Part shown: positions 1 through 9,620 of the stretch, piece by piece | How the letters are laid out: every line of letters starts with the position of its first letter | Position numbering within the stretch: position 1 is the first letter of the stretch | Sequence record: OZ346228.1 | Source: a phage | DNA length: 64,000 bases | Strand: one strand, 5' to 3' | Notes under the pieces: model-generated | What the model was told of the DNA's origin: nothing | The model's input: the letters and a program-made list of their open reading frames with translations, nothing else | Database searches by the model: none | Program-made: the position numbers and the translations under genes

Positions 1-1463
1 ACTGTGGATGTGCAAACGCAGTAGATACTTTTGCAAACAATGAGAAATTTATCCGTAGCTACGGAACAGTGGTCCTTGCAATGGACAACGATGCGGCTAA
101 CGAGGTAGAGAAGCAAAAACACGTTATCAAAGGTGTTGAAGCCACACATAATATTGCAGCATTTTTGATGGCTGACAACGTTTACCACGTGGAATATCCT
201 GGCGAGGTAAACGACCCTGATGGTGTAAAAGATATCCGTGACATGCTGAAGGCTAAAAAGCTGGAAGATATTGTAAACATGTTCCGGCATCCTGTTAAGT
301 ATGTGCCTGATGCTGTGTCGGATTTAGAAGACTTCTCTATCGAATCTTTGCGGAAAAAGACTTCCAACGGGGTAGATATCAGCGCAGAGTTTCCAAAACT
401 GCAAAAAATGCTAAAAGGCTTGCACAAAGGGACACTCGTAATGCTTACAGGTCCATCAGGAGGTGGTAAAACAACTGTAGCCAAAAAACTGGAACACTGT
501 ATTGCAAGATACCTAATGGACCCGACATGTCCAAAGGCCGATGACTACGAAGAGGATGATCGTCTATGCATGATTCATCTTGAGGAGGACCCAGAGGAAG
601 CAATTAACTCCTTGTATGCAAACCAGTTAGGGTTTGATGTTAAAGAGTTTGTTGAAGATCCTAGCCAGTTTTTAACTGATCAAGAACATGCAGAGATTCA
701 CCAATCATGGGCAAAAGCTGGAAAAATCAAAGTGTTCAAACATTTCGGGTCTATTCCAGTGGACGAGTTGATTACCAAGCTTAAGCAAATGGTCTGCCTG
801 TACCATTGTCGCTATATTGTGCTGGATCACCTGTCTATGGTAATTTCAGGGCTTAATGTTAAAGATGAGCGAAAAGAACTGGACATGGCTATGACTCAGC
901 TGGCTGCGTTTTGTAAGCAGTTTAACGTGTTTATCTTGGTGATCGCTCACCTCAAACGTACAGAGATTGTGCCTCCTAAGGACAAGGATGGTAACCCATT
1001 ACCTTTCTGGTATCCTGTGCGAAAAGAGAATTTGCGAGGATCGGCTGGGCTTGAACAGTTGAGTTGGGTAGTCATAGGTGTCGAGGCCGAAGAAATGGTG
1101 GATCGTTCTCGTGGGCGTGTCCGTCTGGTAGGTCTTAAAAACCGTCCAGCAAAAACTTTAGGTATTGCTGACACTTTAGTTATGGACCCACATACAGGTA
1201 AGTTCCATGATGCCAGTAATTGGTACTGGGACAAAGAAATGCAGATGTTTACAGACGGAGAAGGTGGGGAGGTTGTTTGGAGACCTCAGGCCATGTTTGA
1301 GGACCAAGAGCATGCAGTTGTAGAAACACCTATGGGCAAGGTTGTAGCCGATAAGGTTGTAACTCCTACTATTAAGCCTGTTGACACGCAGGAAGACCTT
1401 CAGTACGATGATCCATCCTCTGATCCGGTCCCCGGTTTTGAGGATGATGAAACACCTTTTTAA
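1..1463 (+). CDS. DNA primase/helicase, T7 gp4-like (5' end upstream of window)
   Basis: Frame open from nt 3 with no start; TOPRIM-like VVLAMDNDAAN, Walker A LTGPSGGGKTT, helicase-like body; acidic C-terminus ending DDETPF. Confidence 0.85.
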   Translation, partial: CGCANAVDTFANNEKFIRSYGTVVLAMDNDAANEVEKQKHVIKGVEATHNIAAFLMADNVYHVEYPGEVNDPDGVKDIRDMLKAKKLEDIVNMFRHPVKYVPDAVSDLEDFSIESLRKKTSNGVDISAEFPKLQKMLKGLHKGTLVMLTGPSGGGKTTVAKKLEHCIARYLMDPTCPKADDYEEDDRLCMIHLEEDPEEAINSLYANQLGFDVKEFVEDPSQFLTDQEHAEIHQSWAKAGKIKVFKHFGSIPVDELITKLKQMVCLYHCRYIVLDHLSMVISGLNVKDERKELDMAMTQLAAFCKQFNVFILVIAHLKRTEIVPPKDKDGNPLPFWYPVRKENLRGSAGLEQLSWVVIGVEAEEMVDRSRGRVRLVGLKNRPAKTLGIADTLVMDPHTGKFHDASNWYWDKEMQMFTDGEGGEVVWRPQAMFEDQEHAVVETPMGKVVADKVVTPTIKPVDTQEDLQYDDPSSDPVPGFEDDETPF

Positions 1464-1521: not shown

Positions 1522-3945
1522 ATGAGCATGTGGTCGTTCGACTTTGAGTCATCCGGTTTGCTGGAAGACCCAGATCTTTATTATCACTGCGGCCTGTTTA
1601 AAGAGCTGAATAAGAACCGTTTTATGCTGTTCCTTCCTCTAAATGACCGCACACACTACTCCGAGGAGGATATAGAAAAGGCTAAGAACTTCATTCTGGC
1701 AAAGAAAACTCTTTATAAAGATTTTGAAGTTCGCATAGCAGATTTTTCAGAGTTGGAAGGTTGGCTTACAGGAAATTCTGACTGGTCACCAACAGCTTTG
1801 AACTGCCATAACTGCTACAGTTATGACTTTATGCTGATGGAAAGATTATCTGGTATTCATTTTGATATGTTCCGTGATCCTAAGTGTATGGGGACTATCA
1901 ACGATCACCAGGTTAACCTGTTTGATACGTTGGCGATGAGCCGAATCTTGTGGCCTGATCGCCCTTTACCAAAAGGTTGTCCGGACTCTGTATTCAACCC
2001 GGTTACTAAGAAAATGCAGCCTGTTGGTCCTCACGGCCTTATGGCATGGGGCTACGCCCTTGGTAACCAGAAAGTTCAAATTGATGACTGGCGCGATCTT
2101 CCGTTATGGAAGTATGTGGATCGTGTATTTGAGGACGTTATCATCCAGGAGCTGCTCTGGAAAGAGCTGGTAGCGGAATCAAAAGGTGTATTCTACGGCA
2201 AATCTGACATGCAGAACTTTATGTACGATCCTGCCAAAGAGAAGCCGAAAGGGTTCAAGAAGATCACCTGGAAGAACGCATTACGTCGAGGCATGTTGCA
2301 GCACTTCCTGATGGAGCTGCAGGCCCGTCAGGGTGTATACTTCGACATAGATGGGGCTATTGCTTTACGTGACCGCTGCGATGCGTGGATGAAAGAGATC
2401 GCTGATCGTGTTGAACCACAACTGCCTTTAAAAGAGCTGTCAATGTCTCAGCGGCCCAAGTTCCCTGAAAAGCCGTTTAACCAAGATGGGACAATCTCTA
2501 ATAATGGTTGGAAATGGTTAAAAGATAAGCTTGGCTATCCTGTGGACATGAGTGCTTTAGAGTTCAAAGCCCCACCTAAGCGAGCATTTACCTCTACAGG
2601 AGATGTCAGTAAGATGGGGATAAAATGGTGTGAAGAGATGGGCTGCAAAGACCACGATAAGATGGCTGATTTCTTGAGAGGTTATATTAAGGGCACCTCC
2701 ACACCACAACCTTTACCTAAAGAGCTGATGGATCAGGCAATAAGCGATCTGCAACAGAAGCGAATGCCTGACTGCAAGATACCTATGAAAATCAGCAATC
2801 AGGACGACATTAAGCGATACCTGATCAGTGCTGGTTGGCTTCCGACAATGTGGAGAACTAAGGATGTAACTAAGGACAGCAAGAAGAAAGCTCTACCTGA
2901 TGCAGATGTTGATGCACGAGTATATGCATACATGGACGAGCTTTTAGAGTCAGAGTATTGTGACCTAATTATCAACTTCTGGAACAAAACTGATGCTAAG
3001 TTTCAGACAACAGTGCACAAGTTCCGAAGCTTTCCTAACTCCGAAAGGATTAAAAAGGAAGTGTTCGGGAAAATACGCAGAAAAGCCAGGGCACTTATTA
3101 CTTCTCCGCAACTGAAAGATACGTTTGGACACCTATGTCCGAATCTTGAAAAATTGAACGGAGAGATGGCTAAAGATATCGTCTTGTGGTTATCATTGCG
3201 AAACCGCAGATCGGTCCTTGATCCAATCAAGGAGGATAAGGTTGATACTGGTCTTCTTAATCACCCACGTTTGAAGATTGACCATAAGCTTCCTGCTAAA
3301 AGCTCTGGATTAACAAACACTTCCCGACAGAAACACAGTATTTGTGCAAACATGCCTAAACCATCTCCTAAAGTGGTTATGGGTAAAGAGATGCGTAGCT
3401 TGTGGGGTGTTCCTCCTGGATACTTTGAGATCGGTATTGACGGGTCCAACTTAGAGCAGCTTATCGGGGCTTGGGGTGCCTTTGAGTTCGACAACGGCTT
3501 GTACTATGATGTTGTAAGTAACGGGGACGCACACCAAAACAATGCTGAGGCATATACAAAAGTAGCAGGCAGAGAGGTGTCTCGTAACGACGGTAAACCT
3601 ATCACGTATGGGGTTATGTACGGGGCACAAAAAGATAAAGTTGCAGATATGCTGGATATCTCCCCAGAGTTGGGGCAAAGGGTGATCGATGCACTTTGGG
3701 ATGCCAACCCAGGTCTTAAGGGGCGCAAAGAGGATCTGGAGAAATTCTGGGAAGCAACAGGTAAGAAGTTTATCTACTCTTTTGATGGTCATGCTATCTG
3801 GACCCGATCTAAACACTCTTTACTTAATGCATACCAACAAAATGGCGGCGCATCGTTGTGTGACTTAGTTGGGATACTCATGCACCATCAAATGGTGAAG
3901 CGTGGGTGGTACGATGAAGGTGTTCGTCGTATTATCTATTACCAT
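1522..3945 (+). CDS. DNA polymerase family A (T7 gp5-like), exon 1
   Basis: RBS AAGGAGA; N-terminal exo motif FDFESSG, HGLMAWGYALG region, motif A IDGSNLEQL, motif B KPITYGVMYGAQ; frame stops 2 codons after ..IIYYH, before any HDE motif C. Confidence 0.85.
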
Positions 3946-4787
3946 AAATAACATTGTGGCTTCGTGCAGTGATGCACGTCGAAAACCTCTTTAATTGACG
4001 GGAAGGCTAAGTTGACTTTTACACCTAAACATGGTAAAAGCTCAATATGCTAATCCGCAGCGAAGACTAAAGGGGTGTAGTTAAAATGGCTAGATCAGTT
4101 GAGTATCACGGATATACCGTGTTTGATGATGGAACAATACCTTTATCGAAACGTGATCATACAACAATGTTTTGTTTTGATAATGGTCGAGGTTACCTTT
4201 GCGTAACCATGTTCATCGAGGGGAAGCAGTGCACAAAAGGTGTCCACCACTTGGTTGCTGAATGCTTTGTATCAAACCCTGATCCTGAAAGGCTCACATG
4301 GGTGAACCATAAGGACGGAAACAAATACAACAATGCATACTGGAACCTTGAATGGACCACCCCTGGTGGAAATATCAAACACGCTTATGATAATGACCTC
4401 AGAGTAAGGCCAGTCGGTGAGTATAATGCCAACGCTGTACTGACCGAGGATGAGGTAACGGAGATTTGCGAACTGTTACAAAGTGGTTTACGACAATGCG
4501 AGATTAGGGATCTTGGGTATCCTTATGAGACGGTCAGAGCCATAAAGCAAAGAAGACAGTGGAAACATATCTCTAAAAACTACACCTGGTAGTAACGTTC
4601 AGAGACTATCGAAAGCATAGCGCCAACATAAATTGGTGCGAAGAAGCGAGTAGAGTAGACCAGCAAGTGCGGTCGAAATGGGAGGTGCCTTGGTAACAAG
4701 GTAGTGAGATAGTCCGATCCATACAGGAAACTGTATGGCTGTGCACGTAATGGTGCGGGGTAGCTTAACGACCTACCTGAACTATTG
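3946..4787 (+). mobile_element. Group I intron interrupting DNA polymerase before motif C
   Basis: Exon 1 ends on U at 3945; AGACTA (P7 5' strand) at 4064-4069; GAGATAGTCCG (P7 3' strand) at 4706-4716; P9-like hairpin CCATACAG-GAAA-CTGTATGG at 4719-4738; terminal G at 4787; joining gives ..YYH-DEYQLQV. Confidence 0.75.
4086..4592 (+). CDS. HNH homing endonuclease, intron-encoded
   Basis: HNH motif WVNHKDGNKYNNAYWNLEW; lies inside the proposed intron between P7 5' and P7 3' elements. Confidence 0.8.
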   Translation: MARSVEYHGYTVFDDGTIPLSKRDHTTMFCFDNGRGYLCVTMFIEGKQCTKGVHHLVAECFVSNPDPERLTWVNHKDGNKYNNAYWNLEWTTPGGNIKHAYDNDLRVRPVGEYNANAVLTEDEVTEICELLQSGLRQCEIRDLGYPYETVRAIKQRRQWKHISKNYTW

Positions 4788-5141
4788 GATGAGTACCAAC
4801 TTCAAGTCCCTGACACACCGAAGTATAAGACTGTGTACACCTTCGACACAATCGAAGAACTGGAAGCATTTAAGGCAGAGCAGGAGGCCAAACTTCATGT
4901 GTTCGACGGTCATAAGTACAAAAAGGCACGCAAGGATGAGGACGGAAACGAAGTGGTTGACAGAGACGGAAACACGGTGTACGATCCTATCCTGAACGAT
5001 GACGGAAAGCTTGAACTTATCTGGAGCCCTGTGGGTGAAATGGTGGTGCATTGCTTCTGGCAAGCTTCTAAAATGATGGGCGTCCCGTTCCAGATCACGG
5101 GTGAATACCTGTGTGGTCGTAATTGGGGTGATTGTCACTAA
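4788..5141 (+). CDS. DNA polymerase family A, exon 2
   Basis: Begins GAT GAG (DE of motif C) in frame after omega-G; C-terminus ..GRNWGDCH resembles T7 gp5 end ..GPNWAICH (from memory). Confidence 0.75.
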   Translation, partial: DEYQLQVPDTPKYKTVYTFDTIEELEAFKAEQEAKLHVFDGHKYKKARKDEDGNEVVDRDGNTVYDPILNDDGKLELIWSPVGEMVVHCFWQASKMMGVPFQITGEYLCGRNWGDCH

Positions 5142-7883: not shown

Positions 7884-7966
7884 CAAATACCTATTGTAAT
7901 TTACAGAAGGGGATGCTAAAATAGTGTCTCCTTCTATGTTGTTCAAATAAAATCGGAGATTCCATA

Positions 7967-8332
7967 ATGGAACAAATGAACGATCAAGCGTCGGTTGCGA
8001 TGAACGAGCAAGAACAACCTCAAGAATTTTTCTTAGGGTTAAGTAAAGATCAAGTGTCTCTTCTGCTAGTGCTTTCTTCTTTCATGGGAAGACTTCAGGA
8101 GCTCACACAACAGCCAGAGGCTGAACAATTATTCCAAGCTTTGCGTGAAGAAGAAAAATATCGTCGTTTGGACTATGCCTTAGGTTGGGTAGCTCAACAA
8201 CGAGATATGCTGATGGCCCTCTCTGGGACCACAAGTTTTGCAATGGGGCTGTTGGCTCAAGTTCAGGACAAATTAATTCAAGCAGGGTTTGCACACACGG
8301 CAAACACTAACGAAGAACAAGGAGACAAATAA
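7967..8332 (+). CDS. hypothetical protein
   Basis: RBS CGGAG; stop overlaps next start. Confidence 0.55.
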   Translation: MEQMNDQASVAMNEQEQPQEFFLGLSKDQVSLLLVLSSFMGRLQELTQQPEAEQLFQALREEEKYRRLDYALGWVAQQRDMLMALSGTTSFAMGLLAQVQDKLIQAGFAHTANTNEEQGDK

Positions 8333-9558
8333 TGAGCGTTATTCAACAATTCGCTAACCCGATGAATCCGCGTGAAACTGTTTTACTGGCTCACGGCATG
8401 ATTAAACGTGTCAGCATCAAGCCTATCAAAGGTGCTGATCCTACAACAGGTATTAAAACCACTGTGTGGCAAGGTAAGAAAATTGAATCCAGCCACACCA
8501 TCTCTTTACTGATTTCTGAACTGGATTCCTCTGATAACCTGCTTCAAGGTGGTGAAGAAGTTTGGATCAGCATGGGTGATAAGCTGCTTAAACCTGGTCA
8601 TCAAGACTCTGTCTCTGTTAAAATTGATGACAAGTGGGAAACCGTAACGCCGGGATGGATCGTAAATATTCCTTTGAAGGCAAACGAGCATAACGGTAAG
8701 ACCTATTACAAAGGCTCACTGGCTAAGATGGTCAAGCTGGGTGCAGGAGAGGCTCCAGCAGCGACTCAGCAGCAAAAACAGCAACAAGGTGCACAATCAC
8801 AAGGCCAGAAGCAGAAACCTCAGCAGAATGCCAATCAGGACGTTTTACGCATCTATGGTGATGTGACTCAGATTGTTGGCAACGTGGTTACTGTTAATGA
8901 CCACAAGATTGGCGAAGGTGCTATGGTTGTAACTGATGAGCAGCTTAAAGACCTGGTGGTAGGTGGTCGTGTTGCAGCCATTGTTGACAAAGACACCGGA
9001 AACATTATCAGTGGTTTCAAGGCCTATCCTCCTAAGGCAGAGAACGGCACTCAAGGCTCTGGTGGCAAGCGTAAATCCTCTTACGACCCTATCGGTGTGG
9101 AAACGGGGCATAGCATCAATGCGTTGCAGATCATCCTGGATCGCGGGTTTAAGGTAGACGACCCACTGGGCGTGGCTAAAACACTGCACGTAGTCACCAT
9201 TGAGCTTAAGAAAGAGTATGCTCAAGCCACCAACCGAGCTGAAGATGAAGTAGGTGCCAGTGTCGGTAATGCGGTGTTGAACGCTTGTCGCCGTATTGAC
9301 AAGAAAACGAAAGTTGATGATTTTGCAGTGGCAATTACTGCAGAAGCAAAAGATGTCTTGACTAATCTAGCTGAGCCGTTGTACGATTGGATCAAGAACG
9401 GTGCTGAGTCCACTGACCATCAAGAACCTCAGGCTGCCAAACAGGAAGCAGCTCCACAGCAAAACACTGTAGACGCTCCTCCTGTAAATGATGCGGAAGA
9501 TGACCCAATGGATCAGAATCCAGCACAGTACGTCTTTGATGATGACATCCCATTTTAA
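8332..9558 (+). CDS. SSB-like replication protein with E. coli SSB C-terminal tip
   Basis: RBS AAGGAG; 408 aa with Q-rich linker; last residues ..YVFDDDIPF match the E. coli SSB tail DFDDDIPF; core fold not recognisable by eye. Confidence 0.6.
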   Translation: MSVIQQFANPMNPRETVLLAHGMIKRVSIKPIKGADPTTGIKTTVWQGKKIESSHTISLLISELDSSDNLLQGGEEVWISMGDKLLKPGHQDSVSVKIDDKWETVTPGWIVNIPLKANEHNGKTYYKGSLAKMVKLGAGEAPAATQQQKQQQGAQSQGQKQKPQQNANQDVLRIYGDVTQIVGNVVTVNDHKIGEGAMVVTDEQLKDLVVGGRVAAIVDKDTGNIISGFKAYPPKAENGTQGSGGKRKSSYDPIGVETGHSINALQIILDRGFKVDDPLGVAKTLHVVTIELKKEYAQATNRAEDEVGASVGNAVLNACRRIDKKTKVDDFAVAITAEAKDVLTNLAEPLYDWIKNGAESTDHQEPQAAKQEAAPQQNTVDAPPVNDAEDDPMDQNPAQYVFDDDIPF

Positions 9559-9620
9559 CATTTAGTTAACATAGCCCTGCCAGAAAGGGTGGGGTATTTT
9601 TGTATAAGGAGATCTAAAAA

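Follow-up and report, generated by a model that had tools for sequence, protein, structure and literature searches.

The closest described relative of the protein considered here is Bas52_0087 of phage RudolfGeigy/Bas52 (QXV84166.1; MZ501102, 75981-77207), which was studied in the context of the reverse-transcriptase defence DRT10 (UG17) (bioRxiv 10.64898/2026.04.29.721553, 30 April 2026). For Bas52_0087, AlphaFold2 predicted an architecture like that of the proteins that bind single-stranded DNA (ssDNA), called SSBs, with two OB folds, a disordered C-terminus and the C-terminal tip FDDDIPF. The protein is needed to trigger DRT10 during infection and enhances restriction during infection when supplied in trans; on its own, it does not activate DRT10 and is not toxic. 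Escape from DRT10 was mediated by missense mutations only, D252V or Y351C, both of which affect the helical domain and lie at a “putative oligomerization interface”. Furthermore, host ExoI (SbcB) damps DRT10, and overexpression of SbcB attenuates restriction (10.64898/2026.04.29.721553). The subject of this work is the orthologous gene, termed rV5 ORF214 in phage rV5, in a stretch of 64,000 nucleotides (nt) of phage DNA (sequence record OZ346228.1; one strand, 5' to 3'), hereafter called the window. Its product, an SSB-like protein of 408 amino acids (aa), is probably the phage's own replicative or recombinational SSB and would represent a non-canonical family of such proteins, which, as far as cultured phages go, occurs in rV5-like myoviruses only.

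The proteins of the window phage and Bas52 have the same length and can be aligned without gaps, 402 of the 408 residues being identical. One of the six substitutions is located just before the tip (S401 in Bas52_0087, V401 in the window protein), and the window protein retains both D252 and Y351. The gene order of the two phages is syntenic. Thus, the 2026 preprint has already described this protein together with its predicted fold and tip, and the finding is real but essentially known. Literature searches yielded no other paper on this SSB-like protein. The preprint covers neither a survey of the family nor the tail of the primase-helicase nor a homing endonuclease in the tail codons; what is added here is the scope of the family, a T7-like tail on the primase-helicase and the targeting of the tail codons by an endonuclease.

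An earlier sequence-only reading of the window had placed an open reading frame (ORF) of 408 codons at this position and had pointed out the identity of its last seven residues with the tail of the host SSB. Both statements are correct, and the coordinates are exact. The protein ends with ...NPAQYVFDDDIPF followed by TAA. For comparison, the E. coli SSB reference was checked against PDB entry 1eqq_A, to which it is identical across 178 aa, with the C-terminus ...SNEPPMDFDDDIPF (PPMDFDDDIPF). The chance of finding one given 7-mer at a C-terminus is approximately 1e-9 per protein, and in a set of 2,305 ORFs (minimum length 40 aa) from the window and the full genome of a near-identical relative, the SSB-like ORF is the only one with an acidic end of the type ...[ILV]PF. 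The FDDDIPF match is therefore not due to chance. Over its full length (residues 1-408 against positions 1-393 of 393), the protein matches the profile phrog_4477 with an E value of 1.7e-172. Over the gene, the window shares 99.9% identity with Escherichia phage Murica and about 98% with rV5 as well as numerous further genomes of Vequintavirus. Judged by its sequence, the window phage is a Vequintavirus (rV5-type coliphage).

The sequence-only reading had made its case depend on a tail that recurs in homologues, and the tail is indeed kept across the family. A word-indexed search and a full hidden Markov model (HMM) scan of 1.84 billion representatives were carried out, the former yielding 56 homologues, the latter 243 clusters at 50% identity (E <1e-3). 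In 27 homologues, with identities down to about 30%, P407 and F408 never vary, and in 130 diverse members D403, D404, D405, P407 and F408 are conserved in 72-95%. Among the 150 best representatives, 112 possess a PF end, which is preceded by I, L or V in 105 cases (68 IPF, 23 LPF, 14 VPF). FDDDIPF is the commonest 7-mer ending in this set, and several family members even match the host over a longer stretch, PPMDFDDDIPF. Members from cultured phages come solely from Vequintavirinae, from Stephanstirmvirinae (phi92-like, Phapecoctavirus) and from a single Acinetobacter phage; tblastn searches with two divergent short forms, P0083 (DDLPF tail) and P0101, detected only rV5-like phages of Enterobacterales and one Acinetobacter phage. 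The short form phi92 gp156 matches phrog_4477, too (E 1.8e-100).

Outside of the tail, no relationship to known SSBs was detectable at the sequence level. Searches of Pfam, NCBIfam and PDB sequences with the single protein, with the 130 members individually and with the family profile gave no match besides the tail. The SSB model PF00436 was matched neither by the window protein (E up to 1) nor by any of the 130 members (E up to 0.01). When the family profile was compared with PDB sequences, E. coli SSB was hit only at its last 22 residues (E 1.7). No Pfam or NCBIfam model exists for the SSB-like family, the sole profile match being phrog_4477, whose function is unknown.

The predicted structure gives a different picture. 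An AlphaFold2 model built with 27 homologues reached a predicted local distance difference test (pLDDT) score of 75 over the full length, with values of about 85-95 in the folded domains; the N-terminal domain modelled alone scored 91.4. The model (Table 1) comprises an N-terminal, all-beta OB fold of the SSB/PriB type, a glutamine-rich linker, a second, small OB fold, a four-helix bundle and a disordered acidic tail. The sequence-only reading had found no recognizable OB fold in the body, a statement that does not stand in view of two OB folds in the model, while the Q-rich linker it had described is there. This linker sits between two folded domains and not ahead of the tail. The N-terminal OB fold, which is the putative main ssDNA-binding domain, is common to the long and short forms of the family. 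By contrast, the second OB fold is absent from the short-form homologues of 275-315 aa, including phi92 gp156. Since many members (short forms of 260-310 aa) do without it, the core of the family consists of OB fold, helical bundle and acidic tail. The best-conserved part is the bundle, a putative oligomerization module. In the 130 diverse members, its conserved positions are D252, G255, G259, H260, N263, G308, G312, A314 and A318, G312 being invariant in all 130 sequences. The small-residue patterns suit tight helix packing. Like bacterial SSBs, the protein possesses a disordered linker and an acidic tip ending with D-[ILV]-P-F-COOH, and its charge layout resembles an SSB in combining a basic OB domain and an acidic tail with linkers that are disordered and either Q-rich or acidic.

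The genomic surroundings are in agreement with a role in DNA replication. The gene is part of the replication module, in which it lies downstream of, and on the same strand as, the genes for a DnaB-like primase-helicase and a family-A DNA polymerase. Besides the helicase-primase and the polymerase, the phage encodes a ligase, an RNase H and nucleases. As the phage has its own replication enzymes, a dedicated SSB is to be expected, and the SSB-like gene is the only candidate: no other SSB is annotated in the complete, near-identical JLBYU08 genome, and phmmer comparisons of every ORF with E. coli SSB, either complete or reduced to its OB domain, gave nothing but noise (E >7). The designation SSB has been given by some submitters to the protein or to relatives of the short form. 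Taken together, the following mode of action can be proposed. The basic N-terminal OB fold would bind ssDNA, assisted in the long forms by the second OB fold, as the predicted folds suggest. The four-helix bundle would assemble an oligomer, which is consistent with its conserved small residues and the published escape mutants. The flexible acidic tail of about 50 aa would present D-D-D-I-P-F-COOH as a docking peptide, as indicated by its identity with the host tip and its conservation throughout the family. Its targets may be the host pockets that accept the C-terminal SSB tip (SSB-Ct), i.e. those of ExoI/SbcB, RecQ, PriA and the chi subunit, and, by analogy with T7 gp2.5 and gp4, also the family-A polymerase of the phage. 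During infection, DRT10 would sense the activity of the SSB-like protein.

Table 1. Features of the SSB-like gene, its product and its surroundings in the window (OZ346228.1)
Feature	Position	Strand	Remarks
DnaB-like primase-helicase	ends 1463	+	AAA_25 and DnaB_C domains
C-terminal tail of the primase-helicase	1437..1463	+	...FEDDETPF and stop; second replisome protein with an acidic Pro-Phe end
Family-A DNA polymerase	1522-3951		
Promoter-like site	7894..7922	+	TTGTAA, 17-nt spacer, TG-TAAAAT; consensus scan, 5 sites against 3.5 by chance (weak)
Upstream 121-aa helical ORF	7967..8332	+	phrog_7310, function unknown; TAATG stop/start overlap with the SSB-like gene
AGGAG	8320-8324	+	ahead of the ATG of the SSB-like gene
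Coding sequence of the 408-aa SSB-like protein	8332..9558	+	ATG start, TAA stop; phrog_4477; orthologue of Bas52_0087 / rV5 ORF214
N-terminal all-beta OB fold, residues 1-139	8332..8748	+	pLDDT ~88 in the full model; isoelectric point (pI) 9.1
Q-rich disordered linker, residues 140-170	8749..8841	+	pLDDT <50 (140-169); 13 Q in 31 residues
Second small OB fold, residues 171-235	8842..9036	+	five-stranded barrel (171-232), order b1-b2-b3-short helix-b4-b5; confident
Short linker, residues 237-250			low-confidence model
Four-helix bundle, residues 252-357	9085..9402	+	helices 253-270, 278-300, 304-321, 328-355; pLDDT ~90 (253-355)
Codons of D252 and Y351	9085-9087, 9382-9384	+	in the bundle; DRT10-escape positions of Bas52_0087
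Disordered acidic tail, residues 358-408	9403..9555	+	pI 4.05; 13 D/E against 1 K/R; pLDDT <50 (365-408)
FDDDIPF codons	9535..9555	+	exact E. coli SSB C-terminal tip; translation compared with E. coli SSB
Empty homing site CCA TTT TAA	9550..9558	+	alignment of the window with the endonuclease-carrying allele L007
Terminator-like hairpin and T-run	9574..9601	+	directly 3' of the SSB-like gene; consensus scan only (weak)

Mobile endonucleases have repeatedly landed at the 3' end of the SSB-like gene. In the endonuclease-carrying allele (L007:4225-4867), a 641-bp insertion resides exactly inside the Pro-Phe codons, the site that is empty in the window. It carries a gene for a 207-aa protein of the endonuclease-VII type (phrog_1035, E 6e-40), labelled “putative homing endonuclease” by the BASEL annotators. 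The junction was found in about 32 Vequintavirus records. Among these is rV5, whose ORF214 ends with ...DFCDDIPFAPVGLQYGKSRIHAL and is accompanied by ORF213 (L015, 1455-2078). By the insertion, 15 aa (APVGLQYGKSRIHAL) are added beyond the terminal Phe, and the ATG of the endonuclease gene is located in the +1 frame within TTGCAATATGG. The possibility that this extension (APIGLQYG..IYAL) is a second functional SSB motif was considered and rejected; it is the read-through, in the frame of the SSB-like gene, of the ribosome-binding site and first codons of the endonuclease gene. Canonical ssb genes of lambdoid and Vibrio phages have the same tail with the extension at their 3' ends. An HNH endonuclease that shares the N-terminal zinc-finger module comes after the extension in phage morffagbaw (L008, 1544-1984). 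The tail extension was also detected on primase-helicase genes of Klebsiella phages (Klebsiella phage DP, L013, 2540-2566), and phi92 (L009, 2545-2572) shows a decayed footprint without an endonuclease ORF. Literature searches revealed no paper in which SSB tail codons were reported to harbour a homing endonuclease.

A comparison of the window with the endonuclease allele disclosed that mismatches climb from about 1-2 to 6-7 per 100 nt over positions 9332-9531, number seven within the final 24 nt of the gene and amount to 7-12 per 100 nt across the next 300 nt downstream. This rise around the insertion is of the kind that co-conversion would produce. SSB-Ct pockets recognize the side chain of the terminal Phe together with its carboxylate. 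Because the homing site of the window allele is empty, the tip of the window protein is free. Proteins that are 95-99% identical overall (the window protein and P0001-P0008) differ right ahead of the tip and within it (YVFDDDIPF, YSFDDDIPF, YAFDDDIPF, YEFDDSIPF, YDFCDDIPF; window 9532-9555). Such hypervariability at the target of an endonuclease could be brought about by co-conversion or by selection for cleavage-resistant sites. Two other arrangements were observed. In Raoultella phage Ro1 (L010, 3191-3616), a different HNH gene, gp194, starts 3 nt past the stop codon of the SSB-like gene, and the tip (DFDDQIPF) stays free. In some Vequintaviruses, e.g. bov11CS3, a relative of the rV5 endonuclease gene is situated just downstream of the SSB-like gene without a tail junction.

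How the tail is used may be judged by comparison with a second protein of the same replisome. The primase-helicase of the window phage likewise has an acidic Pro-Phe end (...GFEDDETPF), and 103 out of 120 of its homologues end with PF, e.g. DNDTPF, DSDSPF or DDEPF. The acidic tail of T7 gp2.5 and its terminal Phe bind T7 polymerase, and T7 gp4 has a similar acidic tail. As the helicase tail mirrors T7, the tail of the SSB-like protein may dock on the phage family-A polymerase besides or instead of host SSB partners; by analogy, a shared docking site for both tails, possibly on this polymerase, is suggested. Taken further, the tail might act mainly within the phage replisome, on the family-A polymerase or the primase-helicase, in which case the match to the host tip would reflect convergent peptide chemistry, or sequence brought in through gene conversion around the homing endonuclease, and not an adaptation for hijacking host proteins. 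This explanation, which does not conflict with an SSB function of the protein, is rather unlikely. The polymerase of the phage belongs to family A, and that of phi92 was called T7-like by its annotators. Moreover, a single endonuclease family is found in the tails of canonical ssb, SSB-like and primase-helicase genes, with mismatches rising around the insertion. On the other hand, the two kinds of tails differ at position -3, where SSB-like tails carry I, L or V, as do bacterial SSBs, and often continue upstream to PPMDFDDDIPF, whereas T, S or E is found in helicase tails. These features make the SSB-like tail specifically similar to that of the host SSB. In addition, the genetic connection of the orthologue with DRT10 and host ExoI argues for an interplay with a host SSB-Ct partner.

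The sequence-only reading had left the choice between a divergent SSB and a decoy for host proteins. The former is favoured by the basic OB domain, the acidic tail, the position in the replication module and the lack of a canonical SSB. A decoy or inhibitor would titrate ExoI or RecQ away from host SSB or phage DNA ends, its body serving only as a scaffold, and the phage would depend on host SSB for its replication. The exact seven-residue host tip and the missing sequence homology to known SSBs speak for this reading. Nonetheless, a decoy is improbable, since two OB folds and the helical domain are conserved beyond the needs of a passive scaffold, the phage has no alternative SSB, and the DRT10 escape mutations affect the helical domain and not the tail. 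Furthermore, rV5 and about 30 relatives are viable with a blocked tip, which would abolish a pure decoy, and yet they retain the gene intact. Thus, a free tip is not essential, which weakens the idea of a pure decoy. Even less credible is that the protein serves not as a general SSB but in recombination mediation, annealing or helicase loading, although the combination of OB fold and helical bundle loosely recalls RecO and the annotation of the phage lists neither a RecA/UvsX-type nor an annealing protein. RecO, which has an OB fold, a helical domain and usually a zinc-binding motif, does not bear an SSB-Ct tip but binds it, and it is the architecture of an SSB to combine a basic OB domain with disordered linkers and an acidic tip. 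The interpretation as an SSB of the phage itself also has to face several objections. Apart from the tail, nothing in the sequence links it to the SSB families of Pfam, NCBIfam or PDB. The ssDNA binding, the oligomeric state and the tail partners are all predicted properties. Bas52_0087 alone is non-toxic, whereas toxicity might be anticipated from a protein that competes strongly with host SSB. Finally, the 15 extra residues in rV5 and about 30 relatives, and, as a decayed footprint, in phi92-like phages, should prevent binding to canonical SSB-Ct pockets.

Directly upstream of the SSB-like gene, a 121-aa ORF is located, which may encode a co-expressed partner of the SSB-like protein. By the TAATG overlap, its translation is coupled to that of the SSB-like gene. 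It adjoins the SSB-like gene in Vequintavirus, Mydovirus (Ro1 gp192, phmmer E 9e-17) and Seunavirus (GAP31_234, 2.5e-13), and no homologue was found in Certrevirus or phi92. One submitter annotated this ORF as ‘putative ssDNA-binding protein’. As a candidate for the SSB of the phage, it was dismissed, since its product is helical, has no Pfam or NCBIfam match and is only partially co-conserved in Vequintavirinae. The promoter-like site and the terminator-like hairpin listed in Table 1 bracket the pair of genes. In the window, the polymerase gene is split into two pieces (1522-3951 and 4785-5141), for which a joined coding sequence is annotated in Bas52. Compared to JLBYU08, the gap (3951-4785) contains an extra insert of about 513 nt with a 168-aa ORF (4086-4592), which matches HNH_3 weakly (E 0.0027). 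The insert looks like another homing-endonuclease polymorphism. At gathering thresholds, Rfam detected no RNA family anywhere in the window and no group I intron in the polymerase gap.

SSBs are organizing hubs of replication and repair, and phage SSBs recurrently trigger bacterial immunity, as seen with Retron-Eco8, Hna, AbpAB, DARNA and DRT10. A host docking peptide on a scaffold that is unrelated to SSB by sequence is a natural tool for separating the roles of tip and body. Likewise, near-identical phages with a free tip (window, Bas52) and a blocked tip (rV5) represent a natural experiment on the importance of the tip, and the two kinds of alleles could be used to test its roles in replication, recruitment of host factors and triggering of DRT10. 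The observations can tentatively be combined into a wider picture, in which a distinct SSB family uses a Pro-Phe tail peptide code and offers its tail codons as a homing site. The family may be defined by one or two OB folds, a four-helix oligomerization bundle and a bacterial SSB-Ct tip. Its acidic Pro-Phe tail may be part of a peptide code which is shared with the primase-helicase and read by the phage polymerase and host SSB partners. Homing endonucleases of the endonuclease-VII/HNH type may jump among canonical ssb, SSB-like and primase-helicase genes of unrelated phages. In doing so, they may block the tip by a read-through extension and, via co-conversion, spread the host-like tail between unrelated scaffolds.

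Compared to other SSBs, the window protein occupies a position of its own. With the multi-OB SSBs RPA and baculovirus LEF-3, it shares a likeness at the fold level only (about 10% identity), and it differs from them by the lack of a zinc ribbon and by its bacterial-type tip; as far as can be told, it is not heterotrimeric. T7 gp2.5 is, as proposed for the window protein, a phage-specific OB-fold SSB, whose acidic, Phe-ending tail docks on a family-A polymerase, and both T7 and the window phage possess a primase-helicase with an acidic tail ending in Phe. However, there is no sequence match between gp2.5 and the window protein. Pfam gave no match to gp2.5/DUF2815, and the only structural hit of this kind, obtained with Foldseek, was 4klk (gp2.5-like DUF2815) with an E value of 0.19 and a probability of 0.33. 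The domain architectures diverge, and the tail of the window protein is of the bacterial D-D-D-I-P-F and not of the T7 type. What the protein has in common with E. coli SSB, the PF00436 family and the canonical SSBs of phages and plasmids that derive from it (phrog_44) is the predicted SSB/PriB-type OB fold, a low-complexity disordered linker and an acidic tip, even though no sequence homology to bacterial SSB is detectable outside of the tail. Bacterial SSB binds ssDNA with high affinity regardless of sequence and forms homotetramers by means of its OB domains. What separates the window protein from bacterial SSB is the second OB fold and the conserved four-helix bundle, through which it presumably oligomerizes, instead of using OB-OB contacts as the bacterial protein does.

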